Assembly (NCBI GenBank): GCA_026391125.1
Contig: JAPLEO010000110.1
Span: 7 to 64,006 of the forward strand
Reading direction: 5' to 3'
Length of the DNA: 64,000 bases
DNA from: Bacteroidota bacterium
GTDB lineage: Bacteria; Bacteroidota; Bacteroidia; Chitinophagales; Chitinophagaceae
Part shown: piece by piece, positions 3,000-64,000 of the stretch
How positions within the stretch are numbered: position 1 is the stretch's first letter
Layout: the number at the start of each line of letters is the position of its first letter
Made by a program: the position numbers and the translations under genes
The notes under the pieces: model-generated
What the model saw: the letters and a program-made list of their open reading frames with translations, nothing else
Told to the model about the DNA's origin: nothing
The model's database searches: none

Positions 3000-3026
3000 C
3001 TGATAATATCCAATTAAATAGAAAAA

Positions 3027-8128: not shown

Positions 8129-8149
8129 AGTATTTAAAATTCAATATGG

Positions 8150-25465: not shown

Positions 25466-25493
25466 GTAAAGCTAGGTGGATGCAATTTTAGTT

Positions 25494-45293: not shown

Positions 45294-45339
45294 TTCTCAC
45301 ATTTTAGGCCTGTGTAAAAATATTGAAACTTTGAAGTTA

Positions 45340-45558
45340 TTACTCCCTAGTCTTGCTTGAGCTAGCCTTAAACTTTGTTTTATCCATTTTAGGCGGATTA
45401 TTTAAGGGGTAATTGAATGCAATACTATTTAAATAGGCAGCTATTTTCAAACGCTCTTGCCAACTCAATTTCTTATAATAAGCAGAATGATTAGATGCCT
45501 CATCAACAGTCTGTGCTTTAAAAGCGGTTCGGTCTAATTTGTATTCTTCCATATCCAA
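45340..45558 (-). CDS. Small hypothetical protein (72 aa)
   Basis: ORF only. Co-directional with, and 46 nt upstream of, the Bro-N gene. Confidence 0.5.
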   Translation of the reverse strand: MDMEEYKLDRTAFKAQTVDEASNHSAYYKKLSWQERLKIAAYLNSIAFNYPLNNPPKMDKTKFKASSSKTRE

Positions 45559-45894
45559 ATATACGATTTGCTAACCTTCAGTCAAAAAGTTCAAGATTTC
45601 AATTAAATCTTTAAAATATGGTTCGTACTCTAACTAGCCAAGGGCACTTACCAGCTTTTTGAGGTGTTTTTTTATTGCTAGAACCTATTCAAAAATATTC
45701 GATTATTAGATTTATTAAAATCGGTTTTACCAATAGTGAAACCTGCCCAACTTTATTTGCAAAACTGAATGGTCTGTTAGGCAATCAGTTATAAAAAGAA
45801 CAACATTTACCAAATAAAAATCTTAAATTTAAGTGCTAGTACAATCCCCCACAATTGTTTAAGCTAAGCGATTGATTATATTAAACAATTGATT

Positions 45895-46818
45895 ATGAGT
45901 TCCCCTACTCAATATTCAAATGAAACGCATCTTTATGATCTATTAAGAGAAACAGAGATCATCGGCAAGATTGGCGGATGGGAATTTGATGTGCTCACAC
46001 AAAAGCAAAAATGGACAAGAGGTATTTTTGACATTCTTGAATTTGATTCCACTGAACAAGCTCCTGATGTGCCTGAGGGAATAGGCTTTATAGATGAAGC
46101 ATTTCAGCCAATGGTCCTTGATGCAATGAAACATGCTATTGAAAATGGAGCGCCTTATCATGAAGAGTGGAAAGTCATAACCCAAAAAGGAAATTATCGT
46201 TGGGTCTGCTCAATTGGTAAAGCAAATCAAGTTAATGGAAAAACAATCAGTTTATCTGGCTCTTTTCAAGATATCACCGATCAAAAAGCCAAAGAAAAAA
46301 TAGTACAAGACTTATTAATCAAGCAAGGCTCTATATTAAATGCTGTGCCAGACTTATTATTTGAAGTAGATATTACTGGTAAAATTTACGATTTCCATTC
46401 ACATAGTCCTTTATTATTAGCAGTTCCCAAAAATGAAATGATTGGCAAATGCTTTTCTGAGTTGATAGAATTAGAGGCAGCCGAAGTTTGTTCCTCTGCA
46501 ATTCAAGAAGCGAATGAAATGGGCATTTCAATTGGCAAGCAATATTCTTTAGTATTTGAAGAAAGTATCTATTGGTTTGAAATTTCAGTTGCTGCTTTTG
46601 AAGTTGACAATCAAATCAAAAAACATTTCATTTTCCTTGCTCGTGATATAACGGAAAGAAAATTAGCGGAAAATGCATTAAACGATAAAATGAAAGAAAT
46701 GAATCGTTTATTACAACTTACTATTGGGAGAGAAAGGACTATGATTGAGCTGAAAAAGGAAATTAATGAACTTTTAATAAATGGGGGTAAATCAGCTAAA
46801 TACCAGCATCTAGAATGA
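45895..46818 (+). CDS. Tandem PAS domain protein with C-terminal coiled coil
   Basis: Two PAS/PAC-like modules (GGWEFDV...YHEEWKVITQKGNYRWV; DLLFEVD...YWFEISVAAF...FLARDITERK), then a coiled-coil tail. ATG at 45895. Confidence 0.8.
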   Translation: MSSPTQYSNETHLYDLLRETEIIGKIGGWEFDVLTQKQKWTRGIFDILEFDSTEQAPDVPEGIGFIDEAFQPMVLDAMKHAIENGAPYHEEWKVITQKGNYRWVCSIGKANQVNGKTISLSGSFQDITDQKAKEKIVQDLLIKQGSILNAVPDLLFEVDITGKIYDFHSHSPLLLAVPKNEMIGKCFSELIELEAAEVCSSAIQEANEMGISIGKQYSLVFEESIYWFEISVAAFEVDNQIKKHFIFLARDITERKLAENALNDKMKEMNRLLQLTIGRERTMIELKKEINELLINGGKSAKYQHLE

Positions 46819-47630
46819 GTACCCTGATAAAATATATTTCCACTCAAACTGATGTCAAAAATATCGATCACTACGATGATTCCTTTGTGAACAATATAAT
46901 AGAACAAAGGACTGCTGCATTAAAGTTAAAGGATATAGAAACTTATTCTAACTTTTTGATAAATAGTAAAGCCGAACAGTTGTTTTTTTTTAAAGCACTC
47001 AATAATAATTATAGCGAATTTTATCGTAATCCATTTACTTTTTACAGCATTGAAAACCTTCTATTCCCTGTATTTGTTGGTCAGCTTCTAAATAAGAATA
47101 AAAAAGAAATTAGGGTTTGGAGTGCAGCCAGTTCTGCTGGTCAGGAAGCATATAGTTTAGCGATCCTATTTGAAGAATACCAAATGAAGTGTGCAGATTT
47201 ATTTCCATATAGAATTTTTGCAACTGATAAGTGCTCCGAAGAAATAAATAAGGCAAAGACGGGCATGTATAAAGAAGTAGAATTCCTTCAAATGAGTTTT
47301 TCTAGAATTAAAAAATGGTTTAGTAAAAAAGGAGACAACTATTTTATTGATCCAAATCTGCAGAAGAATATCCATTTTTCAGTTTTCGACCTTTTAAATA
47401 AGTCAACCAATAGCCCTGGTAGTAGTATATATGGTGATTTTGATCTAATTATTTGTGCAAATATCCTCTTCTATTATAAGCCAATGTATCAGATGAGGAT
47501 AATAGAAAAGCTAGTTGCCAATTTATCGAAAGGGGGCTATCTAATTGTTGGTGAAATAGAAAGACATCTGTTGCTTGAAAATAACTATAAAGAAATATAT
47601 CCGCAGTCTGGAATATTTCAACCTAAATAA
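46815..47630 (+). CDS. CheR-type SAM-dependent protein-glutamate methyltransferase homologue
   Basis: SEFYRNP (TEFFRD-like), IRVWSAASSAGQEAYSLAI, ATDKCSEEINKAKTGMY and DLIICANILFYY align with E. coli CheR blocks. The start overlaps the upstream stop (ATGA). Confidence 0.85.
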   Translation: MSTLIKYISTQTDVKNIDHYDDSFVNNIIEQRTAALKLKDIETYSNFLINSKAEQLFFFKALNNNYSEFYRNPFTFYSIENLLFPVFVGQLLNKNKKEIRVWSAASSAGQEAYSLAILFEEYQMKCADLFPYRIFATDKCSEEINKAKTGMYKEVEFLQMSFSRIKKWFSKKGDNYFIDPNLQKNIHFSVFDLLNKSTNSPGSSIYGDFDLIICANILFYYKPMYQMRIIEKLVANLSKGGYLIVGEIERHLLLENNYKEIYPQSGIFQPK

Positions 47631-47637
47631 TAACGAA

Positions 47638-50604
47638 ATGAAAAAACAGACTCTATCAATTTCGGCGCAAATTAAAATTGGTTTTAGCTCAATACTTATT
47701 TTAGTTTTGGGATTACTTTTCTTTTTATTAAGCCAGAATATCACTTTAACAGAACAGACGAAAACAATCTATGGGCATCCCTTGCAGGTTAGGGCTTCTA
47801 TAGCCGAGATACAACAAAGCACATACAGGGAAATGGCAATTCTAAGAGACGCTACACATTTGTATCAACCTGAGGAATATCAATCAATTGTTCATTCCAT
47901 AAATGCCATATCAGATGATGCTGAAAAATCTTTTGAAAATATAAAATCCAACTATTTAGGTAACCCTGCAGATGTTACTAGTGCTCAAGATACATATGAA
48001 CAATGGAGTAATTTGTCCATTCAAATGTTCGATTTAATTACAAATGGTAAATCAAAGGATGCCATTTTAAAAATGAGCCAAAAAGGGGAAGAAGGGAAAA
48101 GCAGAGAATTAGTTTTTGAGAAGCTTGCAATTATTGATGATTTTGCAAAGAGAAAAGCAGATAGTATATATGAAGAAACATTAGTATTAGCTGATAAAAT
48201 GATTCGTGATTCAATACTATTAGCAATTTGTATGCTCACAATTGCCATATTGATTACCTATTATCTAATTAAACAAATATTAACGCCTATTAGAATAATG
48301 GCAAATACAACTGAGCGATTTAAGAATGGTGATTTATCTGCTAGAAATTCTTACAAACAAATGAACGAATTTGGACATTTAGCAGATTCCATCAATCTAT
48401 TTGCTGATAAAATTCAAGCTAGTTCTGAAATGAGCACGAAAGTAATTCAAATTTCAGAACAACTTTTGAGTAAATATGAGGCGAAAGAATTTTTCCATGA
48501 TACCCTAAATACTTTGCTAAGTTTTACGAATTCACAAATGACTGCTGTTTATTTAATAGACAATGAAAAGCAAAACTTCAACCATTTTGATTCTATAGGT
48601 GTGGATGACAACGCTAGAAAATCTTTTTCAGCTATTAACTCTGAGGGTGAATTTGGAGCAGCAATCTCCACAAAAGAGATTCAACATTTAAAAAATATCT
48701 CTGAAAATACAAGATTTCAGTTCTACTCATTTTGTGGAAAGATTATACCCAAAGAAATTATTACTATACCCATTTTGGCCAATAATGAAATAATAGCTAT
48801 CATTTCGCTAGCCAGCATAAATGGATATACCCAAAATGACCTGCAATTAATTAAAAGTATTTATCCAATACTTTGTACACGCATTGAGGGAATCATTGCA
48901 TATCATGCTATTCAAACTTTTTCAGAATCACTTGAATTGCAAAATCAGGAGCTTTCAGTTCAGAAAACAGAACTAGCTGCTCAGTCAAGCGATCTGAGAT
49001 CACAAAATACGATACTTGAAATACAGAAAAATCAATTGAATGAAGTAAGTCGTTTAAAAACAAACTTCTTATCGAATATGAGCCATGAATTACGGACTCC
49101 ACTAAACTCTATCATTGCACTAACAGGATTACTCAGCAGAAAGTTAATTCAAAAAGTTTCTGAGGAGGAATATAGTTATTTAGAAGTGATTGAACGTAAT
49201 GGCAAAAGTTTATTGTATCTAATTAACGATATCCTTGATATAGCCCGGATTGAATCAGGGAAAGAAGAAATTGACATCACGAAGTTTAATCTCAATATTT
49301 TGATTTCTGAGATAGTAACTATGATTCAACCTCAAATATTAACAAAAGCAATTTCGGTACATCAAAAAAATAAGGAAAATGTTTTATTTATTTCAAGCGA
49401 TTCAGATAAACTAAAGCATGTTTTACAAAATTTAATAGGCAACGCAATAAAATTTACTGAAAAAGGGACGATAGAAATTATCTCAGAGAAGGATGGTGAG
49501 AATATTATTATTAAAGTAATTGACACCGGAATTGGCATTCATCAGGATCAGCTTCCACACATATTTGACGAATTCCGACAAGCCGATGGAAGTACTTCAA
49601 GAAAATATGGTGGCACAGGACTTGGCCTTGCAATTGCCAAAAAATATATACAATTACTTGGGGGCAGTATTTCAGTCACAAGTATTCTTGGAACAGGATC
49701 TGAATTTAATATTTCTTTACCTGTAAACTATCAATCTTCCAAAAAAGAACTTGCAATTGAAGGATTTAATGAGTTAAAGTATCCTGTTTTACCTCCAGTT
49801 CCAAACCCTGAACATTCCATAAAAACTATTTTGCTGATAGATGATAGTGAAGCAGCATTATTACAAATGAAATACTTATTAGAAGAATCTGGTTTTCATA
49901 TTTTAGTTGCAGAAAATGGTCAGGCAGCTTTCGATATTTTGGAAAATAATATCCCGGATGTGATTGTATTAGATTTAATGATGCCTGGAATTGATGGATT
50001 TCATGTTTTAAAAAATTTAAGAGCGCAAGTGAAAACGGAAAATATTCCTGTGCTGATTCTAACTGCCAAACTTATATCAAAAGAGGAACTACTATTTTTT
50101 AATAGAAATAATGTCCATCAGTTAATACAAAAGGGAGATGTAAAAAGAAGTGAATTATTAGCGAAAATAAATTTGTTATTATATCCTGCACATACAATCA
50201 TCCCAAAGAATACGACTGACCAATCTACTGCTATAATCAAGCCATTAGTATTAGTGGTGGAAGACAATCCAGACAACCTGCTTACGATAAAGGCATTGCT
50301 TGATGGGAAGTATCAATTAATTGAGGCAACAGATGGAATTGAAGCACTAGAGATAATAAAAAAACAGCTTCCTAATTTGGTATTAATGGACATTGCTTTA
50401 CCTAGGCAAGATGGAATTCAAACCTTTTTGGCAATACAACAAGATGAGCTGTTAAAACATATTCCGGTGATTGCAATAACTGCAAGTGCTATGAATAGCG
50501 ATCGTGAATCAATATTAGCGCATGGTTTTCGTGGTTATATTTCTAAACCTATTGATCATATTCAATTTCACCAAATGATTAAGGAGGTATTATATGGATT
50601 ATAA
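47638..50604 (+). CDS. Hybrid sensor histidine kinase: TM / helical sensor / TM, HAMP, GAF, HisKA, HATPase_c, REC, REC
   Basis: H-box FLSNMSHELRTPLNS, N-box NLIGNAIKFT, G1 DTGIGI, G2 GGTGLGLAI. Two receiver domains (LLIDDSE...LDLMMPGIDG; LVVEDNPDN...MDIALPRQDG). Start at MKKQTLS (47638). Confidence 0.9.
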   Translation: MKKQTLSISAQIKIGFSSILILVLGLLFFLLSQNITLTEQTKTIYGHPLQVRASIAEIQQSTYREMAILRDATHLYQPEEYQSIVHSINAISDDAEKSFENIKSNYLGNPADVTSAQDTYEQWSNLSIQMFDLITNGKSKDAILKMSQKGEEGKSRELVFEKLAIIDDFAKRKADSIYEETLVLADKMIRDSILLAICMLTIAILITYYLIKQILTPIRIMANTTERFKNGDLSARNSYKQMNEFGHLADSINLFADKIQASSEMSTKVIQISEQLLSKYEAKEFFHDTLNTLLSFTNSQMTAVYLIDNEKQNFNHFDSIGVDDNARKSFSAINSEGEFGAAISTKEIQHLKNISENTRFQFYSFCGKIIPKEIITIPILANNEIIAIISLASINGYTQNDLQLIKSIYPILCTRIEGIIAYHAIQTFSESLELQNQELSVQKTELAAQSSDLRSQNTILEIQKNQLNEVSRLKTNFLSNMSHELRTPLNSIIALTGLLSRKLIQKVSEEEYSYLEVIERNGKSLLYLINDILDIARIESGKEEIDITKFNLNILISEIVTMIQPQILTKAISVHQKNKENVLFISSDSDKLKHVLQNLIGNAIKFTEKGTIEIISEKDGENIIIKVIDTGIGIHQDQLPHIFDEFRQADGSTSRKYGGTGLGLAIAKKYIQLLGGSISVTSILGTGSEFNISLPVNYQSSKKELAIEGFNELKYPVLPPVPNPEHSIKTILLIDDSEAALLQMKYLLEESGFHILVAENGQAAFDILENNIPDVIVLDLMMPGIDGFHVLKNLRAQVKTENIPVLILTAKLISKEELLFFNRNNVHQLIQKGDVKRSELLAKINLLLYPAHTIIPKNTTDQSTAIIKPLVLVVEDNPDNLLTIKALLDGKYQLIEATDGIEALEIIKKQLPNLVLMDIALPRQDGIQTFLAIQQDELLKHIPVIAITASAMNSDRESILAHGFRGYISKPIDHIQFHQMIKEVLYGL

Positions 50605-52477
50605 GAATATTAAAATTCTAGCCATTGATGATAATAGGGATAATCTATTTACAATCAAAGCACTGATTAAGGAGACTTTCCCAGAAGCATCTATTGAAAT
50701 GGCAACTGATGGAAATGAAGGATTAGCAATGGCCTATGAACAGGATCCAGATGTAATTCTATTGGATATTCTCATGCCAATTATTGATGGCTTTGAAGTT
50801 TGTAAGCAATTGAAAGAAAATGATTTATCAAAAGATATTCCAGTTATTTTCATCACAGCATTAAAAGGGGACCGTGACAGCAAGGTAAAGGCTTTAGAAG
50901 TTGGAGCCGAGGCATTTTTGGCAAAACCAATTGATGAAATCGAACTGATTGCTCAAATCAGGGCAATGGTAAAGATAAAAAAGAATAATATACAAAAGCG
51001 TACCGAAAAAATTGAACTCTCATTATTGGTTGATGAACAAACTGTTCAGTTGAAGGCTACAAATATGGCGATGCTGAATTTATTAGAAGACCTTAAAGCT
51101 GAAAATGAAGCAAGAAAGAAAAGTGAAGAAATACAACAATTACATTCATCAAGATTAGAATTTGCCATGTATACTGCAAATATGGCTTGGTGGGAAATGG
51201 ACATCTTAAATGGGTTAGTAAAATTTGATAATCGGAAAGCTGAAATGTTGGGATATACACCAGAAAAATTCAATCATTACACAGATTTTACGGCACTGTT
51301 ACATCCAGATGATTTTGAAAAATGTATGAATGCAATGCGTAATCACTTAAATGGTTCTGTTGAAAAATATGAAGTTGACTATAGAATTAAAATAAAGGAT
51401 GGTACTTATAAATGGCTTTTGGATATCGGAACTGTCAATAAAAGAGATGCTGCAGGAGTGCCACTTTATATTACTGGGTTAGTTATTGATATCAATGACA
51501 GTAAAAATGCGGAAGATAAAATAAGGCAAAAAGACATTGAATTTCAAAAGCTCTCAAAAAATATGCCCGACTTTATTTATCAATTCACGCGGCGTGTTGA
51601 TGGAACTTATCATGTCCCCATTGCTACTGCAGGAATTAAAAATGTATTTGGGTTAAATTTAGAGGATGTGATGAATGATTTTTCTCCTATAGCGGAAAGG
51701 ATTCATCCAGATGATATTGCAAATGTTTTTCATAAAATAGAAAATTCTGCCAATAATTTAACAGCATTTCTTTGCGAATACCGTGTTCAAATTCCTAACA
51801 AACCCATCAAATGGTTACTCTCTAAGTCAACTCCAGAAAAATTGCCAGATGGTTCTATTACATGGTACGGCTATGTTGCAGACATTACCGAATCAAAAAA
51901 AGTTGCATTGAAACTACTTCAACTTACACAAGCCATTGAACAAAGTCCGGTTTCCATTTTTATCACTGATCAAAAAGGTAATATCGAATACGTGAATCAA
52001 AAATTCACAAAAATAACTGGCTATGATTTAGAAGAAATCATTGGCAAAAACCCTAGGATCATCAAATCTGGAAATACTTCTCTCAAAATATATGAGCAAT
52101 TATGGGATTCAATATTGGATGGTAAAGAATGGAATGGTGTGCTTCAAAATAAAAAAAAGAATGGTGAATTTTTTTGGGAATCTATTAAAATCTCTTCTAT
52201 TAAAGATAAAAATGGAGTCATCACCAATTTCTTGGCTATTAAAGAAGATATTACAGAACGAAAAATTGTTGATGATAAATTAAAAAAAATTGCCTGGCAA
52301 CAAAGTCATGAAGTTAGAGGTCCGCTATCCTCTATCTTAGGAATTATTTCAGCTATGAACTTTAAAATAACCTTAGAAGAAAAACTGGAACTATTAGGAA
52401 AATTGGATGAAGTTTCAAAGAAGTTAGACAAAGCAATTCATGCAATAGTAAATGAAACTATTCCCAGCAATATTTAA
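50594..52477 (+). CDS. Response regulator: REC, three PAS domains, C-terminal H-box/DHp-like segment, no HATPase_c
   Basis: REC (LAIDDNRDN...LDILMPIIDG...FITALK). PAS/PAC repeats. The protein ends about 60 aa after WQQSHEVRGPLSSILG. The start overlaps the kinase stop by 11 nt. Confidence 0.85.
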   Translation: MDYKNIKILAIDDNRDNLFTIKALIKETFPEASIEMATDGNEGLAMAYEQDPDVILLDILMPIIDGFEVCKQLKENDLSKDIPVIFITALKGDRDSKVKALEVGAEAFLAKPIDEIELIAQIRAMVKIKKNNIQKRTEKIELSLLVDEQTVQLKATNMAMLNLLEDLKAENEARKKSEEIQQLHSSRLEFAMYTANMAWWEMDILNGLVKFDNRKAEMLGYTPEKFNHYTDFTALLHPDDFEKCMNAMRNHLNGSVEKYEVDYRIKIKDGTYKWLLDIGTVNKRDAAGVPLYITGLVIDINDSKNAEDKIRQKDIEFQKLSKNMPDFIYQFTRRVDGTYHVPIATAGIKNVFGLNLEDVMNDFSPIAERIHPDDIANVFHKIENSANNLTAFLCEYRVQIPNKPIKWLLSKSTPEKLPDGSITWYGYVADITESKKVALKLLQLTQAIEQSPVSIFITDQKGNIEYVNQKFTKITGYDLEEIIGKNPRIIKSGNTSLKIYEQLWDSILDGKEWNGVLQNKKKNGEFFWESIKISSIKDKNGVITNFLAIKEDITERKIVDDKLKKIAWQQSHEVRGPLSSILGIISAMNFKITLEEKLELLGKLDEVSKKLDKAIHAIVNETIPSNI

Positions 52478-52512
52478 TAAAACAGTATAGTGAATACTTG
52501 GAAAGTGATTAT

Positions 52513-53973
52513 TTAATGACTATGTCTTATTTTAAGTACGCCTCCTTGAGTTTCTTTTATGGTATGAACAAACATAAAAGCTTGTGGGTCTAATTCATAC
52601 ACGAGGTTTTTTAATTTCCTTAATTCAAGTCTAGTGATTACGGTGAAGATGATGTCACAATCTGAACTAACTTCAAATTTGCCTGGTAAAAAACCTCGTT
52701 CACCTTTATAAACAGTAATACCTCTTCCTAATGTATTTACCAATTGGTATTTGATCATTTCGCTTTTACCTGAAATAATAGTAATACCTGTATATGCCTG
52801 TATGCCCTCAACAACATAATCAATACTCCTTGTTGCAGCAAAATAGGTTAGAATACTGTAAAGAGAAGTAACTATTCCAAACTTAAAAGCAGCAATAGAA
52901 AAGATTACAATATTGATACCCAGAATAATTTCGGTGATAGTAAAAGAAGTTCTTTTCAATGTATAGATTGCAAGAACTTCAATGCCGTCCAAAGCTGCAC
53001 CCACTCTCATTACTAGCCCTACACCAATACCGAGGAATACGCCTCCAAAAATAGAAATGAGTAATTTATCAGAAGTTAAAGCAAACTCTGGTAATAGCCA
53101 TAAAGCAATACCCAGTAGGATAACACTAATTAAAGTTCTAATAGCAAACCTGCGGCCAACAGAAAAATAACTAATCACTACAAAGGGCATATTCATCAAC
53201 ACAATAACTATTGCTAAATTGAAATGATATAATTCATGTATTAGCAGAGAGATGCCGGTAACTCCACCATCAAAAAATTGATTGGGTACTAAAAATCCTT
53301 TTAATGCGACTCCCGCAATAATAACACCTAAAATCATTAATACAGCATCTTGGATCAGTTCTGTTAGATTGGGTTTGGAATGATTAAATTCTGTAACCAC
53401 CAATTTTGATTGCAGCTCCTGTAGATGTTGTTGTTTTTTGGTTTCCCTTTCATTTTGCGCAGTTTTTGTAAAAAAATGATGGGTAGTTAGGAACTCAACT
53501 TGTTTTAATACCCATTCTGTATCTGTTTTTAGTAACCCATTTTTTTGTGATTCTTTAAATAGCTTTTCTGAATACATAAAATATTCTTCACTCCCTAAAT
53601 AAAATAAATCAGCATCGCAAAGTATTTGACTTAAATGATCAATAGGAGACTGTGGCAACTTTGTAGCCATAATCATTCTACAAATGATTTCAATCTGCTC
53701 GGGAGAATAACCATATTCAGGCAAATATTTTTTGGCAATGGTGCAAGAAATTGTCTCATGTTCGGTGTGGTTTTGCAAAAATCCAGAATCATGAAATAAA
53801 GCAGCAGTCTTCAATAAAATGATATCATCACCTCCAATATTTTCAGCCAAAGCCAAATGGTCAGCAGCGGCAATTACATTTTTCGTGTGCTGAGCATTGT
53901 GATAGATAATATAGTTGGGTATACCAGTTTCTAATTTATGTATCAGAAAAGAATAAATTTGTTCAAACTGCAT
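52513..53973 (-). CDS. HD domain fused to a YitT-family membrane protein (with DUF2179-like C-terminus)
   Basis: N-terminal YHNAQHT...LFHDSGF HD motif. About five central TM helices. The C-terminal ITVYKGERGF... pattern is typical of YitT/DUF2179. Confidence 0.75.
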   Translation of the reverse strand: MQFEQIYSFLIHKLETGIPNYIIYHNAQHTKNVIAAADHLALAENIGGDDIILLKTAALFHDSGFLQNHTEHETISCTIAKKYLPEYGYSPEQIEIICRMIMATKLPQSPIDHLSQILCDADLFYLGSEEYFMYSEKLFKESQKNGLLKTDTEWVLKQVEFLTTHHFFTKTAQNERETKKQQHLQELQSKLVVTEFNHSKPNLTELIQDAVLMILGVIIAGVALKGFLVPNQFFDGGVTGISLLIHELYHFNLAIVIVLMNMPFVVISYFSVGRRFAIRTLISVILLGIALWLLPEFALTSDKLLISIFGGVFLGIGVGLVMRVGAALDGIEVLAIYTLKRTSFTITEIILGINIVIFSIAAFKFGIVTSLYSILTYFAATRSIDYVVEGIQAYTGITIISGKSEMIKYQLVNTLGRGITVYKGERGFLPGKFEVSSDCDIIFTVITRLELRKLKNLVYELDPQAFMFVHTIKETQGGVLKIRHSH

Positions 53974-53994
53974 CCTAAAAATTTAAAAGGTATT

Positions 53995-55026
53995 TTAATT
54001 TAATACTTCATACAGTATTACTTCTCCTGTTTTATTTTTTAAACTTACTGTGCCAATACTTTTACAATTAAAAGATTGGTTTACTTTTTTATAACAGGAT
54101 TCTGTAATTAAAATTTGGCTATAGGTAGCAGCAGTTTGTAATCGCTGCGCAGTATTAACAGTGTCTCCTATGACAGTATAGTCTAACCGGCGCAGGGTTG
54201 CTGATCCAATATTGCCTGAGATCATTTCACCACTATTAATACCAATTGAAACCTTGGGGTTAAAACCATATTCAACTGGGAGTACATCGATTTTGTTTTT
54301 GATTGCTAAACAGGCATCAATAGCACGGTCTAAATGATAAGGGCCTTTAAATACCGCCATAATACAATCGCCAATAAATTTATCTACGATCCCATTTTGA
54401 GCAATGATCTCTTTTACCATTAACTCAAAATATTTATTCAACAATTTCACTACAATATCGGGCGTTTCTTTTTCACTAATGGAAGTAAAGCCACAGATAT
54501 CAATAAAAGCAACTGTTGCTTCTAGTGTTTCGTTGTCGGTTAATGATTGTTCATATTCTTTTGAGTTCATGAAATTGAGCACATTAGAATCAACATACAT
54601 TTTGAGGATATTATTTTCTTTGATGGCAAGTAAGGTTTCTTTCAGCTGATTCACATAACTAATCGTTTTTTCAATGGTAAGTTCTAGGTCCTCAAAATTG
54701 ATGGGCTTGGTTACAAAATCAAAAGCACCTCTATTCATGGCAGTTCTGATATTATCCATATCTCCATAAGCAGATACCATTACTGTTTTAGACATTGGAG
54801 AAACCTCATTCAGCTTTCCAAGCAAAGTAAGTCCGTCCATTTCTGGCATATTGATATCAGATAGCACCACATCAATATCATTGTGCAATTGCATTTTTTC
54901 TAAAGCATCTTTCCCATTAATAGCAAACACAAAATCGTATTGTTGTTCTCTGATCTTTTGCCTAAACTTTTGCTTGATCAAAACTTCTAAATCTGTTTCG
55001 TCATCAGCTACCAGAATTTTGGTCAT
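53995..55026 (-). CDS. Response regulator fused to a class III adenylate/guanylate cyclase domain
   Basis: REC (ILVADDETD...LSDINMPEMDG...MVSAYG). Cyclase blocks VAFIDICGFTS, KFIGDCIMAVF, IGINSGEMISGNIGS and YTVIGDTVNTAQRLQ. Confidence 0.9.
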   Translation of the reverse strand: MTKILVADDETDLEVLIKQKFRQKIREQQYDFVFAINGKDALEKMQLHNDIDVVLSDINMPEMDGLTLLGKLNEVSPMSKTVMVSAYGDMDNIRTAMNRGAFDFVTKPINFEDLELTIEKTISYVNQLKETLLAIKENNILKMYVDSNVLNFMNSKEYEQSLTDNETLEATVAFIDICGFTSISEKETPDIVVKLLNKYFELMVKEIIAQNGIVDKFIGDCIMAVFKGPYHLDRAIDACLAIKNKIDVLPVEYGFNPKVSIGINSGEMISGNIGSATLRRLDYTVIGDTVNTAQRLQTAATYSQILITESCYKKVNQSFNCKSIGTVSLKNKTGEVILYEVLN

Positions 55027-55400
55027 AGGAGTCTTGTTTTTAATTTTTCTTTTAAAGAGTTGAAATCAACGGGCTTAGTCAAAAAATCATCCGCTCCAAG
55101 CTTCATCGCTTCCTGAAAATTTGCATCATCGCCATACGCTGTAATCATCATTACAACTGGGGGAGGAGTTGCATACTTTTCCTTGATCTGCTTAAGTAAT
55201 TCCAATCCGCTCATGCCTGGCATATTGATGTCTGATAGAATCAACACGGCTTCATGAAAATTTTTCTTCATATAGTCTAATGCTTCCTCGCCCGAAAAGG
55301 CAAATACAAAATTGATTTCACCTTCCTTGATCTCTTTTCTAAATCTCTGTTGGAAAAGAAATTGCACATCTTTTTCATCATCTACTACAAGTATTTTCAT
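55023..55400 (-). CDS. Single-domain response regulator (CheY-like)
   Basis: ILVVDDEKD...LSDINMPGMSG...MITAYG...DFLTKP. Its stop overlaps the cyclase start (ATGA). Confidence 0.9.
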   Translation of the reverse strand: MKILVVDDEKDVQFLFQQRFRKEIKEGEINFVFAFSGEEALDYMKKNFHEAVLILSDINMPGMSGLELLKQIKEKYATPPPVVMMITAYGDDANFQEAMKLGADDFLTKPVDFNSLKEKLKTRLL

Positions 55401-55407
55401 TGTGGGG

Positions 55408-57750
55408 TTATTTTGGTAAAATGATTATAAATTCGGTTCCTTCACCTTCTTTTGTTTCTACTTTCAATTCTCCACCATGTGCTTTTACAATATCATAACT
55501 CAAACTTAAACCCAGCCCTGTACCTTTTCCGGTAGGTTTGGTTGTAAAAAATGGTTGAAAGATTTTATCAAGATTTTTTTGAGCAATCCCATTACCATTA
55601 TCCTTCACTGAAATGATGATATTATTTGCTGTTTTCTTTGTTGTCAACGAAACTGTAGGATCATAATTAAGGGCCCCTTTTTTCTTTTTTTCATCCACTA
55701 CATAAAAAGCATTTGTAAAAAGGTTCAAGATTACCCTGCCAATATCTTGAGGAACAACATTAATATTTCCAATTGATGGATCCAAATTTGTTTCCATTTT
55801 TGCATTGAATGATTTGTCTTTAGCTCTCAAGCCATGATAGGAGAGACGTAAGTATTCTTCGGCCAATACATTGATATCTGTAGGTTCTTTCACTCCAGAG
55901 CTGCTTCGGCTATGTTGTAGCATCCCTTTTACGATTCCGTCTGCACGTTTGCCGTGGTGATTGATTTTATCCTCATTATCGATTACATCTTTTGCAATCT
56001 TTTTTACTTCTACATAATTACCCTTATCAATTTCTTCGTTTAATTCTGTTAATAGCTCTTGGTTGATTTCTGAAAAATTATTAATAAAATTTAATGGGTT
56101 CTGGATCTCATGGGCAATGCCTGCGGTAAGTTCTCCGAGTGAAGCCATTTTTTCGGATTGAATCAATTGTTTTTGAGTGGTTTTTAATTCACCCAAAGTT
56201 GTTTCCAGTTCCTTTTTTTGTTTTTGCAATAAACTATATGCTTTTTGTTTGTGCTGATTATTTCTATATAAGAGAAACACAACAACTAGTATTCCTGTAA
56301 TGATCGAGATCAAACCATACATTCTTACCCGATTATCATAATCTTGCTTAGCTTCTTTACTTTGTTGTTCTAATTGCTGGCGTCGGGAGGATTCATTAAA
56401 AGTAAGTGTTTGAAACTGACGGATCTTATCGGTATTATATAGGCTGTCTTTTAATGTAACAGAAAGCTGTAAGTATTTATAGGCACTATCTAGTTGGTGA
56501 TTTGATTTATATAGATCAGCAATGATTGGGCTGATTTCTGCTATAAAATAGTTTGAATTTTCGCCCCATGATTGTACTGTTTTTTTCTTTGTTTGATAAA
56601 AAGTTAAAGCCATTTTTGCATAATATAAAGCGGAGTCTATTTGACCATCGTTTTGAAATGTCTTAGCCATTCCAAAATGAGTTTTTGTTAACCAATAGTC
56701 ATTCGGATGTGCAAGAGATAATCTATAGAATTTTAAAGCTGTTTTATTATCTCCTTTTGCTGAATAGCAGTCTGCAAGTATTTGATGGCAAGAGGCTAAA
56801 TATGCTTGTTCAAAAGCAAATCCTTTTAAGTTTATTAATTGATTTGCATAAATCAATGCAGAATCAGGTAAATGCAAGTTTAAAAATGCATTTATAATGA
56901 TATTGTTTACTCTCCACCTATTCAAAGAATAACTTGGATCATTTGGGTTCAATGTGTGAAAAATAGAATCAGCAAATTTTCCATATACAAGTTCATGCTG
57001 ATAATCTTTCATTGCTCTATAATCGAAAGCGATGTTATTTATAGCCTGTATTAGTAAAGATTTATCAGATGCTTTCTCTGCTATTTTTAAGTTTTCGAAT
57101 CTCAGTTCCAAAGATTTTGGATAATTACCTAGGGAATGCATCAAAGTAGCTACCACTTCCTTAAGACTCAGAAATTGATATATCGATCTTGAATCATTAT
57201 TTGATAATTGTTTATCAGTAGCGTTTATACGTTGCTGTAATTGAAGTGCAGTTTGTGCATAATATAAAGCGGAATCCGCATTATAATATTCAGTAAAAAA
57301 TGCGTAAGAATAAGCAATCGTTGCTAATACTTTTAATCGATTACTATCCTCTTTTGCTTTATTTAAAGCATACCATTTATCAAGGAACATCTGATCTCGC
57401 CATCTTTCTACACTATCGGTAATTGTAGTGTCTTTTTTTATAGAAATGATTCGATCCGGAACTTCATCACCATCATCTTGTTTTTCAACACTAAGCCAAC
57501 TGCCTCTGTGAAATTTGTATTTAATGGGGCCAGCTTTTAAATTCAAAGTGATGGACTTTGAATGATCACCAGTTGCATGCATCAAATAATTATTATTAGC
57601 AGTAGAATCCCAATTAGCAAAATTGCCGGTAATGAATATACTATCGTGTTGTATGACTGTCTTCTCTTTTAATAAGAAAGTCACTTTGATTTGGGCATGC
57701 AAATTCATTGCCAAGAACACAGAAATAATCAGACCAAAAATACTTTTCAT
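55408..57750 (-). CDS. Sensor histidine kinase: signal peptide, CBM48/AMPK-GBD-like module, TPR repeats, TM, HisKA, HATPase_c (array member 1, intact)
   Basis: IFITGNFANWD...IKYKFHRGSW module. H-box GIAHEIQNPLNF, N-box NLFTNAFY, G1 DNGNGI, G2 GTGLGL. Confidence 0.9.
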   Translation of the reverse strand: MKSIFGLIISVFLAMNLHAQIKVTFLLKEKTVIQHDSIFITGNFANWDSTANNNYLMHATGDHSKSITLNLKAGPIKYKFHRGSWLSVEKQDDGDEVPDRIISIKKDTTITDSVERWRDQMFLDKWYALNKAKEDSNRLKVLATIAYSYAFFTEYYNADSALYYAQTALQLQQRINATDKQLSNNDSRSIYQFLSLKEVVATLMHSLGNYPKSLELRFENLKIAEKASDKSLLIQAINNIAFDYRAMKDYQHELVYGKFADSIFHTLNPNDPSYSLNRWRVNNIIINAFLNLHLPDSALIYANQLINLKGFAFEQAYLASCHQILADCYSAKGDNKTALKFYRLSLAHPNDYWLTKTHFGMAKTFQNDGQIDSALYYAKMALTFYQTKKKTVQSWGENSNYFIAEISPIIADLYKSNHQLDSAYKYLQLSVTLKDSLYNTDKIRQFQTLTFNESSRRQQLEQQSKEAKQDYDNRVRMYGLISIITGILVVVFLLYRNNQHKQKAYSLLQKQKKELETTLGELKTTQKQLIQSEKMASLGELTAGIAHEIQNPLNFINNFSEINQELLTELNEEIDKGNYVEVKKIAKDVIDNEDKINHHGKRADGIVKGMLQHSRSSSGVKEPTDINVLAEEYLRLSYHGLRAKDKSFNAKMETNLDPSIGNINVVPQDIGRVILNLFTNAFYVVDEKKKKGALNYDPTVSLTTKKTANNIIISVKDNGNGIAQKNLDKIFQPFFTTKPTGKGTGLGLSLSYDIVKAHGGELKVETKEGEGTEFIIILPK

Positions 57751-57788: not shown

Positions 57789-59955
57789 TTAAACTATAGG
57801 AATCTCTATAATAAATTCTGTCCCTTCCCCTTCTTTCGTTTCCACTTTCAATTCCCCACCATGTGCTTTTACAATATCATAGCTTAAACTCAATCCCAAG
57901 CCAGTTCCCTGTCCTGTTGGTTTGGTTGTAAAGAAGGGCTGGAAAATTTTATCCATTATGTTTTTAGGGATTCCATTTCCATTGTCCTTAATGGAAATTA
58001 ATATATTTTTTTCTGTTTTTTGGGTTTTCACATTAATCGTAGGCTCATAATTGGCTGGCTCATAGAATAACACGACCTATATCCTGTGAAATGATATTGA
58101 CCTTTCCAATACTTTCATCAAAATCAGTTTTCATTTTGGCATTAAAAGATTTGTCTTTGGCGCGAAGTCCATGATAGGCGAGGCGCAGGTATTCATCAGC
58201 CAATGCATTGATATCAGTTGGTTCTTTTTGTCCACTACTGCTGCGGCTATGTTGGAGCATTCCTCGCACAATGTCGCCGGCGCGTTTGCCGTGGTGGTTA
58301 ATTTTTTGTTCATTTTCTTTAATTTCATTTGAAATGGCAATAGCTTCTTCCGTATTTCCGGTTTTTAGTTCCTGTTGTAATTCATCTATTAATTCTGTGT
58401 TTACTTCTGAAAAATTATTGACGAAGTTTAGTGGGTTTTGAATTTCATGGGCAATACCTGCTGTGAGTTCTCCTAGCGATGCCATCTTCTCTGATTGGAT
58501 CAATTGCGCTTGGGCTGCTTTTAAACTGTCTAAGGAATTTTGTAGTTCTCTGGTGCGCTCTGCAACTTCTTTTTCCAATCTTTCATTTTGTTGAGAGATT
58601 AATAAAATTTTCTCTGCTTCTTTTTCCTTTTCCATTCTTTCTTTATCAATGATCTCTTCGGTTAATTTTTCTTGGATGGATTGATAGCGTTTAAATAATA
58701 ACCAGGAAAAAAATAATATTAGCCATAACAACATAAGTAAAGTAATTAAAGAACTCCAGTTGTTGATCCATTGAATAAATGAAGGTTGCTTGACTTTATA
58801 ATATTTATCAAGCATGCCATAATAAAATTGTACGCTAAGTACCGGACCAAAATAGAAAAAGAATGGAACTGTTGCCAGTAACCTATTATTAATTTTCACT
58901 TTTTTATTGAGCAGCACTAAAAAAATAGTAAGAAATAAAAAGTCTAAAAAAAGATAAACAAAAACTATTACTGAGTCGCCAATTCTGTCATACAAAAATT
59001 GTTTAATTGGAATGAAGGTTATCCATGCTAATACAATCCATACTAATACAATAAAGTAATTATAGAATTTTAAAAATTTGTCCCACTTGGGTAAATATAT
59101 TTGGGTTCTAAAAAAATACCTGACAAATAGCATTAACGAAAAAAACCAACAAATAAGGGTCAGATAATTTACAATTAACAATGTTATAGTAAAAGAATAC
59201 CCAAAAAGCAAATCCGAATATTGGAAAAAAGAATTGAGTCCGAAGGAAATCAAGAATAATGAAAAATATAGGTATTCTTTTTCTTTAGTTGCACGATAAA
59301 AGGTAATATTAATAAAAAAGGCAAGGATGATGATACCTATTAAAATTGCATTAACAATATTGTCAAAATCGGATGTATAGGTAAGTTTATTTTTAATATC
59401 CCGACTTTTCTGTAAGTAAGCCGGCATCACATTAAAAGTGAGTTTATTGGGTATTAAACCACGAAGAGTATTATGCAGTCTTGTATAAATAGTGATCTCC
59501 TGAAAAGGTTGCAGTGTAAGGGTTGCAATAAATAACATCTTATAACCATCTCTTTTGGATTTATGATATGACCATCCAGTTTTTAAATGTTGCCATTGCA
59601 AAGTTGAATCAGCAAAATAGATATCAGTTTCCATTGCCTCTGCAGGGATGCCCATTTCCACAGTTTTATTCAGGGTATTCTTTATCCGTACATGATACCA
59701 AAATGTTTTTACAGTAAAATCAGATTGCTTAGTAGTATCAAACTGCCTGAATCTATTTGCAAATGCCGGATTTGAAACTATTTTAAAATCGGTGGTACCC
59801 AAACTATCATCCCAGACCCGCCAGAATTTTCTTTCTACTTTAAATTCAGCAACTGTATCAGTTGTAATTAAAAAAGTTTCGGGCAAAACATTTTGCGCAA
59901 CTGAGCACAAGGGCAGAAAAGAAAAACAAATTATTTTTATCAGATTCTTCATCAT
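57789..59955 (-). pseudogene. 7TMR-DISM-type sensor histidine kinase, interrupted (array member 2)
   Basis: Body ORF 58060-59955 has a 7TMR-DISMED2-like ectodomain, 7 TM helices and H-box GIAHEIQNPLNF, and stops after DIGRVIL. Tail ORF 57789-58073 carries the G1/F/G2 boxes and is in the +1 frame. The N-box codons present in intact paralogues are absent. Confidence 0.8.
57922..58062. repeat. 141-bp block identical to 60096-60236 (kinase tail cassette, copy A)
   Basis: Base-by-base comparison shows 141/141 identity. The adjacent 81 bp (57841-57921 vs 60015-60095) differ at 8 positions. Identity ends exactly at the interruption point. Confidence 0.95.
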
Positions 59956-59965
59956 AGCAGTTTTA

Positions 59966-61886
59966 TTAAATAGGTAATATGATTAGAAATGTTGTGCCTT
60001 CACTTTCTTTTGTCTCCACTTTCAACTCCCCACCATGTGCTTTTACAATATCATAGCTTAAACTCAATCCTAAACCGGTACCTTGTCCAGTTGGCTTGGT
60101 TGTAAAGAAGGGCTGGAAAATTTTATCCATTATGTTTTTAGGGATTCCATTTCCATTGTCCTTAATGGAAATTAATATATTTTTTTCTGTTTTTTGGGTT
60201 TTCACATTAATCGTAGGCTCATAATTGGCTGGCTCACTGTGGTATGATATTTACCAATCCAATAGACGGATCAAAATTTGTATGCATGGTCGCATTGAAT
60301 AATTTGTCTTTAGCTCTTAATCCATGATAGGAGAGGCGTAAGTATTCATCAGCCAGTTTGTTGATATCGGTAGGTTCTTTCACTCCGTTGCTACTTCTTG
60401 AATGTTGTAGCATCCCTTTTACAATCGCATCGGCACGTTTGCCGTGGTGATTGATTTTTTCTTCGTTATCAATAACATCTTTTGCAATCGCTTTTACTTC
60501 CTGATAATTGCCTCGATTAATTTCATCATTTAATTCATTCAATAATTCCTTATTCACTTCCGAAAAATTATTGACGAAATTTAATGGGTTCTGGATCTCA
60601 TGAGCAATACCAGCGGTAAGCTCCCCAAGGCTTGCCATCTTTTCGGATTGGATGAGTTGGGACTGTGTGGATGTAAGTTCAGAAAGCGTTTTTTCAGCGA
60701 AAACCTTTTGCCTGTTTATCTCTTCTTTTTGATAATGCAATAAGGCATTGGCCTTTTGTTTCTGCTTGTTATTTCGGTAAAGAAATGACGCAATCAAAAG
60801 GAACACCACTAACCCAGCCAGCATCACATACTGCTTTAAACGATTTTGATAGGCAGCCTGTGTCATATCTAATTCGTATTGCCGTTCCTCTTCATCAAAA
60901 ACTGCAAGGTTTTGCATACTATTCAGATTTCCAAAACTGTTCTGTTTTTGTATTGCCTCCAGGGCCATTTTCTGGTATTTAAGGGCAAGTGACAAGTTGC
61001 TTTTTTCATACATTGTAGACAAAAAAATACTGACTGTTGCAATGGAATTGCCAATGTTGCTTTTTTGTGCGTCGGCAAGAGCTTTTTGTGCATAATAGAT
61101 ACAAGAATCAATTTGCCCTGCCTGTTGATAGATCTCCGCAATTTCAAGGTTTGATTTAAATGTAAAAATATATTGACCGCTTGAATAGCCAGCCAACAGG
61201 CTTTGTCGAAAATAACTGAGCGCAAGCGGTACATTTCCTTTTTTTAATTGGAGCCTGGCAAGTGTTATAAAATTGGTACTACTCATAGATTCCGACCCAT
61301 AGCGCTTGATATGATTATCTGCCATCAGGCAATAATACAAGGCAGAGTCTGTTTGATTCATTAAATAATATGCCCTTCCGATTTGTACTTCTGACGTTAC
61401 CGCCTTGTAATAATTATGCAATGAGTCGAAGAGCTGCTTTGACTTTTTATGATAAAACACTGCCCGGGCGATATCGTCTGTTTGTCTGTATATTACCCCA
61501 AGCCTGTTATATACTTCCCCCCGGCCTATCGTAAAATTGTATTTCTCCGAAATCCGTAAGGCCTTCAACTCCAATTCCAGCGCCCGAGAGTGATTGCTAG
61601 CCAGGGAAAGTGCAAACCCCATCATCAAAAGGGATCTAAATTCCCCTTCGTGAAATTTTATTTTCCGAGATAGTATCAAAGCTTGCTGGGCGTAGAATAA
61701 AGCAGAGTCAGCGTTAGTGTACTTATATTGGTTAACCAGTTCCACCATCGACAGAACATTACTGGTATCGATCTTGCTTATGGAAAGCTCCTGTTTCAAG
61801 CTGTCGATGATGGCTTGCTGATTGCTCTGTGCAAAGCACGGCTGTGATAAAGACCCAATAAGGAACAGACTTATCAACTTTTTCAT
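59966..61886 (-). pseudogene. TPR-type sensor histidine kinase, interrupted (array member 3)
   Basis: Body ORF 60234-61886 has a signal peptide, TPR repeats, a TM helix and an H-box, and stops after GLVNIIPQ. Tail ORF 59966-60205 carries the G1/F/G2 boxes and is in the +1 frame. The GRVIL-N-box segment is absent. Confidence 0.8.
60096..60236. repeat. 141-bp block identical to 57922-58062 (kinase tail cassette, copy B)
   Basis: See copy A. Confidence 0.95.
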
Positions 61887-63853
61887 TATACAATGGATTT
61901 AAAGGGTAATTGAATAATAAATTCACTTCCTTCGTTTTCTTTTGTTTCCACTTTCAATTCCCCACCATGCGCTTTAATAATATCATAACTTAAACTCAAA
62001 CCTAACCCTGTTCCCTGGCCTGTTGGCTTGGTAGTGAAGAAGGGTTGGAAGATCTTATCTAAAACTTTCTGTGGTATTCCATTTCCATTATCCGCAACGG
62101 AGATCTGTATTTTCCCCGCAGAATTTTTGGTGGCGACGGTAACTGTTGGCTCATAACCCTCACCAACCATTTTTTTCTTCTCTGCAACAGCATAAAAAGA
62201 ATTGGTGATCAGGTTAAGGATTACTCTTCCAATTTCCTGCGGAATCAGATCGATCTTACCGATCGACGCATCAAATTTTGTGACCAATGTTGCATTGAAA
62301 TCTTTATCCTTGGCCCGCAAACCATGATAAGCTAACCGTAAATACTCATCAGCCAAAGCGTTGATATCAGTAGGTTCTTTTTGTCCGTTGCTGCTGCGGC
62401 TGTGTTGTAGCATGCCTTTAACAATGGCATCGGCGCGTTTGCCATGGTGGTTTATTTTTTGTTCATTGTCTTTGATGTCGTTTGAAATGGCTGTTGCTTC
62501 TTCGGTGTTGCCGGTTTTTAATTCCTTTTGTAATTCATCGATCAATTCGGTGTTCACTTCCGAAAAATTATTGACGAAGTTTAATGGGTTTTGAATTTCA
62601 TGAGCAATGCCTGCTGTAAGCTCACCCAAACTTGCCATTTTTTCGGATTGGATGAGTTGCGATTGGGTGGATTTTAGATTTGTCAACGTTGCTTCTAAAA
62701 TTTTATTGGCATTTTGCTTTTGTCTGTTATTAAAGTAAAGAATAGAAGCCACAATCAAAAATATTCCAAGCCCCCCCAGTAAAATGAATTGCTTCTGCCT
62801 GTTTTGACTTTCAATACGTTCTGCCTCTAGAGTTTTCTGTCGTTCCTGTTCATCCAAAATAATCCTCTGCAATTCAAGGAACCTTTTTATTCCTGTCAGA
62901 TTATCCTTTTCTTGATTGGCTATGGATAAATATTTATAAGCACTGTCGTTCTGGTTCCTTTTTTTATATAAATCGCTTATAAGGACAGAAGCATCATAAA
63001 CGCCTTTTCTGAACGTAACGGCATTTCCGGTTTGCAATGCATTATAAGCATACTTCAAACTAGAGTCAGGCATGTTGAGATCATTATACAATTTTGCCAG
63101 AAATAAGGTATTCGCAGTGAGGTTACGTAAATCATTATCGATATTAGCCTCGATGATTCCCTGTTTATAATAATGCATTGCCTTTTCTTTATCTCCTTTC
63201 AATTTATAGGCATTGCCCATTCTAAACATCATTTCAGGCCAGGTTACAAAATTTCTATTATTATATCTTAATTTACTTGCCTTATACACCTGTTGCTGAT
63301 AATATAAAGCAGAGTCTGGCAGATTCATTAATTCATAGATATTCCCAATATTCGAAATTTCGTTATAAATCAATGCTGAGTCACTCAACACTTCAAACAG
63401 TTCTTTGGACCTGAAATAATATTCATTCGCCTTCTTATAATCTGCCAATTCCATATACGTATTTCCAATGCGGTTAAAAGCCATGGCTATCGTAGCGGTA
63501 TCTTTTAATTTTTGAGCAATATCCAGTGCTTCAAATTGAAACTGAAGCGACTCCGGCAACCTTCCACTTTCCAAAACTGTTGCACCTTTTAATGATAACA
63601 TACCTGCACGCACAAGAGGCAATTGCAATTTAACTGCATAATCAAGAGCCAGGTCAGTATAATAAAGCGAAGAATCTACATTAGAAAACCGAAGGCCTGA
63701 TGCTAATTGCATTGAAAGATTTAATCTTATTGAATCATTGATTTCCGCATACAACTGCCTTTTAAATTTGGAAATATCTTCATTCGATATTTGTGCGAAA
63801 GAGGAAAAGGTTAAACATCCAAATAGAGTAATTGCCAACAATAATTTTTTCAT
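61886..63853 (-). CDS. Sensor histidine kinase: signal peptide, TPR repeats, TM, HisKA, HATPase_c (array member 4, intact)
   Basis: H-box GIAHEIQNPLNF, N-box NLITNSFYAV, G1 DNGNGI, G2 GTGLGL. Its stop overlaps the start of member 3 (TAATG). Confidence 0.9.
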   Translation of the reverse strand: MKKLLLAITLFGCLTFSSFAQISNEDISKFKRQLYAEINDSIRLNLSMQLASGLRFSNVDSSLYYTDLALDYAVKLQLPLVRAGMLSLKGATVLESGRLPESLQFQFEALDIAQKLKDTATIAMAFNRIGNTYMELADYKKANEYYFRSKELFEVLSDSALIYNEISNIGNIYELMNLPDSALYYQQQVYKASKLRYNNRNFVTWPEMMFRMGNAYKLKGDKEKAMHYYKQGIIEANIDNDLRNLTANTLFLAKLYNDLNMPDSSLKYAYNALQTGNAVTFRKGVYDASVLISDLYKKRNQNDSAYKYLSIANQEKDNLTGIKRFLELQRIILDEQERQKTLEAERIESQNRQKQFILLGGLGIFLIVASILYFNNRQKQNANKILEATLTNLKSTQSQLIQSEKMASLGELTAGIAHEIQNPLNFVNNFSEVNTELIDELQKELKTGNTEEATAISNDIKDNEQKINHHGKRADAIVKGMLQHSRSSNGQKEPTDINALADEYLRLAYHGLRAKDKDFNATLVTKFDASIGKIDLIPQEIGRVILNLITNSFYAVAEKKKMVGEGYEPTVTVATKNSAGKIQISVADNGNGIPQKVLDKIFQPFFTTKPTGQGTGLGLSLSYDIIKAHGGELKVETKENEGSEFIIQLPFKSIV

Positions 63854-63861: not shown

Positions 63862-64000
63862 TTATAATGGTAATACTATCTTAAATGATGTGCCCACTCC
63901 TTCTTTGGTCTCTACTTTCAATTCCCCCCCATGCGCCTTCACAATATCATAACTCAAACTCAAGCCTAACCCTGTTCCCTGGCCGGTGGGTTTAGTAGTG
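63862..64000 (-). CDS. C-terminal end of a fifth paralogous histidine kinase (partial, runs off the window)
   Basis: Manual translation of the minus strand gives [44 protein letters not shown]-stop. This matches the tails of the other array members. Confidence 0.75.

Follow-up and report, generated by a model that had tools for sequence, protein, structure and literature searches.

Two adjacent sensor kinase genes of a Chitinophagaceae array lack the N-box at a common junction: a contig-stitching artefact on a gene-conversion tract is the explanation ranked first

The last 9 kb of a 64-kb stretch of Chitinophagaceae DNA (the window, 64,000 nucleotides that are nearly all of a 64,050-bp contig, JAPLEO010000110.1, of a metagenome-assembled genome (MAG) in GenBank) carry an array of sensor histidine kinases, at least five paralogues arranged head to tail on the minus strand at intervals of about 1.9–2.4 kb and numbered here K1 to K5. 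Homologues likewise place this DNA in the Chitinophagaceae. Two neighbours, K2 and K3, are interrupted as deposited: each is divided into a long body open reading frame (ORF) and a short tail ORF, each lacks the N-box of its ATPase domain, and both continue from the point of interruption with the same 141 bp (henceforth block R). Among the explanations weighed, we rank first a contig-stitching artefact at a repeat longer than the k-mer size of the assembler, superimposed on a genuine gene-conversion tract, and give it roughly an even chance of being right. The observations from which it starts are the anatomy of the junctions, the identity tracts in related arrays, the intactness of homologues, the clean restorability of both genes and the lack of a mutational signature.

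Every observation in an earlier note on this DNA was confirmed, beginning with the split in the ORF layout. The K2 body ORF (58060–59955, minus strand, 631 aa; 630 aa in the GenBank annotation) carries 7TMR-DISMED2, 7TMR-DISM_7TM and HisKA domains and ends in ...DIGRVIL, and the K3 body ORF (60234–61886, minus strand, 550 aa) carries TPR repeats and HisKA and ends in ...GLVNIIPQ. The next codon is in both cases the junction TGA, which opens the same string, TGAGCCAGCCAATTATGAGCC. The tails, each with a partial HATPase_c domain, are minus-strand ORFs from GTG of 94 aa for K2 (57789–58073; annotated as 80 aa) and 79 aa for K3 (59966–60205), and in both genes, as had been claimed, the tail is shifted by +1 against the frame of the body. 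The two deposited junctions are GTCGTGTTATTCTA/TGAGCCAGCCAATTATG and ATATCATACCACAG/TGAGCCAGCCAATTATG (the slash marks the junction), both reading TGAGCCAGCCAATTATGAGCCTACGATTAATGTG from the junction onwards. Their diagnostic k-mers are GTCGTGTTATTCTATGAGCCAGCCAATTATG (K2) and ATATCATACCACAGTGAGCCAGCCAATTATG (K3), and that of the intact state, in which the N-box segment is followed by block R, is GAAAAAAAGAAAAATGAGCCAGCC.

The two copies of block R (57922–58062 in K2, 60096–60236 in K3, both on the minus strand) are identical over exactly 141 bp and the identity does not extend by a single bp on either side. The 81 bp that follow contain 8 mismatches (offsets 1, 7, 13, 16, 19, 22, 25 and 70), the count first reported. 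Past block R the K2 and K3 tails are 72% identical over 25 bp, then identical over a 44-bp stretch of conserved coding sequence (57853–57896 = 60027–60070, minus strand; the sole other repeat of at least 31 bp in the array), and then 67% identical. On the body side the two genes show no relationship at this resolution. This is the most variable part of the domain, with 45–76% identity among the other members of the array, and for this reason the perfect 141-bp match cannot be put down to chance. Nor is block R the interior of one larger tandem duplication, a possibility that the earlier note had named as fatal to its own reading: identity ends at both edges of the 141 bp.

A multiple alignment that took in K1 (55408–57750, minus strand), K4 (61886–63853, minus strand) and three kinases of a related locus, L003, places gaps of 47 nt in K2 (between 58063 and 58062) and 68 nt in K3 (between 60237 and 60236). 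The right edge is the same and the left breakpoints lie 21 nt apart, K2 retaining 21 nt (DIGRVIL) that are absent from K3. The register is given by L021, a relative about 84% identical that runs into a K1 orthologue and carries an orthologue of the K2 tail with an intact N-box (protein ...ITNAFYVVNEKKKN-EVDGYEPK, DNA GAAAAAAAGAAAAA/TGAGG). In this register the T of TGAGCC falls on the third position of an Asn codon, and the losses come to exactly 47 and 68 nt, which sharpens the original estimate of about 16 and 23 missing codons; the single right breakpoint with two left ones is likewise as first described. The sequence absent from K2 and K3 is the N-box segment of K1 (55679–55746, minus strand). 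When the 47 nt of K1 at 55679–55725 are inserted in K2, a single ORF of 737 aa results, and insertion of the 68 nt at 55679–55746 in K3 gives a single ORF of 662 aa. Both restored products match HATPase_c over positions 4–108 of 111, and their lengths agree with those of their homologues (736–741 aa for K2, 660–699 aa for K3). There is one lesion per gene, the 631-, 550-, 94- and 79-codon ORFs being otherwise open, and K2 and K3 do not display the several independent disabling lesions or relaxed constraint by which decaying pseudogenes are recognised.

The domain content agrees with this picture. The Pfam HATPase_c profile is matched over positions 3–108 in K1 and 4–110 in K4, out of 111, but only over 23–109 in the K2 tail and 34–108 in the K3 tail, and in neither body. 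The N-box helix with the Mg-ATP-coordinating Asn (...LxNLxxNAxxY/A), present in K1 and K4, is thus absent from K2 and K3 as deposited, while the G1 (DxGxG), F and G2 (GxGLGL) boxes are kept in both tails. Both bodies retain the H-box with its conserved His (AHEIxNPL; GIAHEIQNPLNF in both) within a HisKA domain detected at E-values of 1.7e-5 (K2) and 9.7e-6 (K3).

Intact genes are the rule among relatives. The 20 best homologues of the K2 body (45–85% identity) are proteins of 735–768 aa, all with HATPase_c, and the ten best homologues of the K3 body (77–84%) have 660–699 aa and read ...IIPQDIGRV(I/V)LNL..NAFY...; no broken homologue occurs among these 20 and ten closest sequences. A survey of related loci, close to what the earlier note had proposed, gave the same answer, with none of the 40 kinase tails interrupted in 12 related loci from short-read assemblies. 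Tail-only ORFs are common, and a recurrent biological split as their cause could be dismissed: those on short contigs are contig-edge fragments, and those on long contigs belong to frameshift-ridden long-read assemblies. As a separate observation, in an 846-bp NCBI contig and a 20,963-bp Logan contig the end of a CA domain, or a degenerate G1-G2 region, leads into a second linker plus CA tail (...LPFVWTLDLLGFHQKQQPEGYEPAIS...), and these look like tail-tail fusions or duplications in other assemblies.

The related arrays also contain tracts of identity between neighbouring kinases. In locus L004 two adjacent intact kinases have 24, 40 and 123 identical bp within about 300 nt (about 95% identity) over the N-box (8102–8292 versus 10323–10513). 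Identical stretches of 58, 44 and 78 bp occur between intact kinases of L007 (740–993 versus 2868–3121), one of 104 bp between intact kinases of L015 (3452–3555 versus 6895–6998) and an exact repeat between kinases of L012 (1136–1270 versus 3316–3450). Exact repeats of 78–135 bp between adjacent kinases, mostly spanning the N-box-to-G1 interval and leaving the genes intact, are thus found in related Chitinophagaceae MAGs. K2 itself has a divided ancestry: its body is orthologous to an L003 kinase that carries a different tail, its tail (with block R) finds its orthologue, in L020 and L021, in the tail upstream of K1, and its cytoplasmic part, far more diverged from the orthologue than its sensor, is about 72% identical to it versus about 85% for the whole gene. 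The DNA of the K2 DHp/CA linker (58063–58410) is about 70–75% identical to L003 3576–3923, and the protein encoded there resembles K4. To judge from these comparisons, K2 appears to have a mosaic cytoplasmic half, put together from paralogues.

Given the identical tracts in relatives, the split orthology of the K2 body and tail and the diverged K2 cytoplasmic part, exchange of N-box-to-G1 DNA between neighbouring kinases is a real and recurrent part of the biology of this family. Block R has the hallmark of such gene conversion, a tract of identity far above its flanks (100% over 141 bp versus 72% and 67% downstream) that recurs in related arrays. The array is also hypervariable between strains, because conspecific contigs exist that are 97.8% identical over gcvP (2.2% difference) and no K2 or K3 orthologue above 85–91% was found. 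Conspecific samples are ERZ27280322 and SRR28327197. The earlier note had suggested a tail cassette spread by recombination from a fixed end. The exchange of N-box-to-G1 DNA survives from that proposal (L004, L007, L015, and K2 with L003 and L021); the fixed end finds no support, as ordinary conversion cannot produce two left ends.

The explanation by stitching, which takes up the last alternative of the earlier note, an assembly problem across near-identical paralogues, turns on the length of block R. A de Bruijn contig that leaves a repeat starts with the last k-mer of that repeat, and a raw unitig at k = 141 cannot hold the same 141-mer twice. The window does hold one twice, so this contig, if it comes from MEGAHIT, must have been joined after assembly. 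Counted back from the first mismatch between the K2 and K3 tails, block R is exactly 141 bp, and both junctions sit there. The k-list of MEGAHIT ends at 141, and where a contig breaks at a repeat its end sequence has the length maxK (PMC10914622). The name k141_ occurs on several related MAG contigs, and the longest internal repeats in the loci so named are 135, 104 and 78 bp, all below 141.

Three elements of the stitching explanation are supposed: which assembler was used, that pieces were joined, and how long the tract truly is. The cytoplasmic parts of the array kinases evolve in concert, as the related arrays show, N-box-to-G1 DNA being copied repeatedly between neighbours by gene conversion. 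The true tract of identity between K2 and K3 would extend to the left through the N-box segment, as it does in L004, for a length of about 188 bp. Such a tract would exceed the largest k of the assembler and lie below the usual 200-bp contig cut-off. Pieces that end or begin at the repeat would have been joined into the 64-kb contig, and a faulty join would have dropped precisely the segment upstream of the last k-mer of the repeat. Both kinases would be intact in the cell (737 and 662 aa), and the seemingly fixed end would be no more than the footprint of k = 141.

Several points weigh against this. The use of MEGAHIT for this record, and any post-processing, is an assumption. A graph cannot invent a junction without a common k-mer, and since no k-mer is common across the junction a pure de Bruijn mis-join is ruled out on principle; a non-graph step is needed. 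The candidates are scaffolding followed by removal of the Ns and a naive trimming that assumes overlaps of k, neither of which is common in MAG pipelines. The arithmetic of k is also incomplete: a naive 'trim 141 and concatenate' (left contig minus 141 plus right contig) yields the K2 junction and leaves the extra 21 nt of K3 unexplained, so we rejected it in that form. The equation of 141 with k is partly post hoc, there being about a dozen 'special' lengths, which brings the likelihood ratio nearer to 10 than to 100. The other 58 kb are flawless: of 24 ORFs scanned outside the array, 20 have essentially full-length domain matches and none looks truncated or frameshifted, a result that at the same time ruled out a noisy long-read assembly. 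Finally, the Logan samples described below lack the K1, K2 and K3 bodies altogether and are not a clean test.

It is quite possible, if short of an even chance, that the junctions are real and that K2 and K3 are recent null alleles, each a HisKA-only body plus a CA fragment without N-box that make no ATP-binding kinase. They would have arisen through one-sided deletions of 47 and 68 nt that share their starting base, at the end of the A7-G-A5 tract with which the N-box segment closes, caused either by a sequence-specific break or stall site in both copies or by a deletion, gene conversion and a second deletion of 21 nt; block R would then be the product of recent conversion and would match a k-mer size in length only by coincidence. 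In favour of this, the public record holds this sequence with the proteins annotated accordingly, a de Bruijn contig has by its construction the support of reads, and this contig is otherwise clean. The array is hypervariable and recombining, as the gcvP comparison, the different orthologous partners of the K2 body and tail and the low identity of its cytoplasmic part suggest, and tracts of 78–135 bp are normal in such arrays, so that about 141 bp is of the right order of magnitude. Any sequence-specific hotspot would moreover be common to both copies. However, two or three independent illegitimate events would have to strike the same base with 0–1 nt of microhomology, and simple conversion between the copies would have moved the same left edge, which is not seen. 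The exact value of 141 would be a coincidence of about 1 in 100 (about 1 in 10 allowing for post hoc choice), the four ORFs show no other decay, and no broken homologue turned up among the 40 short-read tails or the closest relatives of either body.

Tests of mechanism at the junctions were negative. Microhomology at either junction amounts to 0–1 nt, and a microhomology-mediated deletion was discarded on this ground. Hairpin-mediated deletion of the N-box was also rejected, the K1 segment folding at −4.6 kcal/mol (z = +0.84). The junctions are not flanked by repeats, inverted or direct, and a repeat search of the array found no second copy of the missing segment besides the N-box of K1. A promoter and terminator scan of the region gave nothing above shuffled expectation. 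Ordinary gene conversion is insufficient, because copying in either direction carries the same left edge and the left edges differ. No ordinary mutational route fits well.

If both junctions are real and linked, they may mark a break or recombination hotspot at the boundary between the N-box segment (A7-G-A5) and the variable linker, cut or stalled recurrently with one-sided loss, or else a fixed end for the exchange of tails carrying the ATP lid and G1; we consider either version highly unlikely. A programmed rearrangement or recoding of the kinases is the least probable of the explanations considered. It could take the form of an on/off switch that works by site-specific excision, insertion or cassette exchange of the N-box segment, of targeted breakage at a site common to both paralogues followed by end joining, or of +1 recoding (...CUA-UGA-G / ...CAG-UGA-G) that joins body to tail. 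The features that recommend it are the same right boundary with different left boundaries, and the stop of both bodies at the first codon of block R with the tail in +1 in both genes. Against it, the scanned ORFs of the window contain no recombinase, transposase, nuclease or reverse transcriptase and there is no CRISPR feature; the junctions lack repeats, only K1 provides another copy of the missing segment and the arrangement is absent from all relatives examined. The idea in the earlier note of a segment that exists in another genomic state finds no support on these grounds, together with the microhomology of at most 1 nt and the lack of a hairpin. As for recoding, an RF2-like +1 frameshift or a gene-60-like bypass was rejected, since the product would still be without the N-box (HATPase_c 23–108) and the two slip contexts, which differ from each other, are not known shift-prone sites.

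Independent assemblies offer little direct help. Only the one GenBank record contains the body proteins of K2 and K3 and the tails of 80 and 79 aa, and look-ups of exact proteins, made for K4 and for both bodies (the K2 body also in its annotated form of 630 aa), found no second assembly. Searches by homology that started from either body or from the tail retrieved no other sequence of at least 92% identity containing block R, which also answers the earlier proposal to look for the 141-bp block in relatives, and the best match among GTDB representative genomes reached only 70% identity. A scan of JGI metagenome contigs for GAGCCAGCCAATTATGAGCC gave 0 matches, a weak negative in view of the fact that a pattern present in the JGI contig L019 also gave 0; the sample of L019 (3300045970) lies outside the scanned JGI collection, so negative scans there say little.

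Two Logan contigs (from SRR20698644 and SRR20698640, for which a literature search found no paper) are 100% identical to positions 45096–55708 of the window, and both end at 55708, inside the N-box codons of K1. This is the last 31-mer that holds the K1-specific base 55678, and 55678/55679 is homologous to the K2/K3 junction. As a hint only, the stop fits a fork in a k = 31 graph caused by a second gene with the N-box DNA of K1 and a different linker, although it is equally compatible with any other paralogue or strain variant; it suggests, exactly at the N-box segment, either a mosaic edge between strains or a fork between paralogues. The exact GcvP, ClpB, K1, K2 and K3 proteins of the window are absent from Logan. 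Taken together with the 2.2% difference of the conspecific contigs, this could point to structural variation with an edge at the N-box segment, and hence to a chimeric consensus of co-occurring strains with differing arrays, in which the K2/K3 path mixes alleles, possibly minority deletion or fusion alleles. We consider this unlikely, as the mixing of alleles cannot make a junction that is absent from all reads, and at the junctions themselves this explanation collapses into an artefact or real null alleles.

The remaining members of the array are unremarkable. K1 (780 aa, with complete HisKA and HATPase_c) and K4 (655 aa) are intact sensor histidine kinases of the TPR type, and the 3' end of K5 (63869–64000, minus strand) continues past the edge of the window. 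Downstream of the array follow a stand-alone receiver, a receiver-cyclase and more signalling genes. The adjoining DNA (45889–55400) is a dense signalling island with a PAS protein, a CheR-type methyltransferase, a REC+PAS protein, a 1009-aa hybrid kinase (HAMP/GAF/HisKA/HATPase_c/REC), a YitT/DUF2179 membrane protein with an HD-like N-terminus, a REC-class III nucleotide cyclase and a stand-alone REC. The gene at 44448–45293 encodes a Bro-N domain protein, of a type typical of phage and prophage regions, and contains the other end (45096) of one of the two Logan contigs (L001). The remainder of the window is ordinary housekeeping DNA (ABC-F, GcvP, ClpB, peptidases, transporters). Just downstream of clpB, at 25339–25467, lies a tandem repeat of the 7-bp unit AGTGAGG (18.4 copies, 93% matches) that overlaps a 111-aa minus-strand ORF.

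The consequences differ with the explanation. Should the split be an artefact, it shows that MAGs can acquire clean-looking 'split genes' where a conversion tract in an array of tandem paralogues exceeds k, and four spurious proteins (630, 550, 80 and 79 aa) are now in nr. Should it be real, the window holds two recently silenced kinases in a fast-evolving signalling array, shaped by birth-and-death evolution and gene conversion. Reads of both states, or the same boundary in other strains, would point to a recombination hotspot at the N-box segment that shuffles sensor bodies and catalytic tails, and through a true hotspot of this sort a hypervariable array would have its own dedicated means of shuffling or silencing its kinases. 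All the likely explanations involve biology of known kinds, namely class I histidine kinases, the concerted evolution of tandem paralogues, and either pseudogenes or assembly errors, and this is likely not a new genetic system.

Among known systems, programmed rearrangements such as shufflons and invertible or excisable elements differ from the present case in that no recombinase domain was found nearby in the scanned ORFs and there are no repeated core sites. Adjacent deletions mediated by insertion sequences resemble it in the fixed right end and variable left end, but no element lies at or near the junctions and no transposase in the window. The contig-end overlaps of length maxK on which COBRA is based (PMC10914622) are similar in that block R is 141 bp and ends at the fork between the tails; they differ in that correct joining deletes nothing, so that an extra faulty step has to be assumed. 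With the concerted evolution of tandem paralogues the likeness is a 141-bp identical tract in genes otherwise 67–75% identical, with similar tracts in L004, L007 and L015, while conversion alone removes no sequence and cannot give two left borders with one right border.

By their content, the genes belong with the 7TMR-DISM and TPR sensor kinases that are expanded in Bacteroidota and Chitinophagaceae. K2 is of the 7TMR-DISM type and K1, K3 and K4 are of the TPR type, and there are hundreds of homologues of 640–770 aa with the same architecture, although in short-read assemblies these are single ORFs with HATPase_c. Within the class I sensor histidine kinases of the NtrB/ZraS type, K2 and K3 stand apart through the lack of the N-box helix (HATPase_c about 1–22) and the division in two, and so lack a defining feature of an active GHKL ATPase; even so, their bodies keep the H-box and their tails keep G1, F and G2. 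K1 and K4 align with this type over the whole DHp and CA region, with H-box AHEIQNPL, N-box VILNLFTNAFY, G1 DNGNGI and G2 GTGLGL, and the closest solved structure is that of ZraS (9jfj), with FixL fusions and HK853 (2c2a/3dge) also among the matches.

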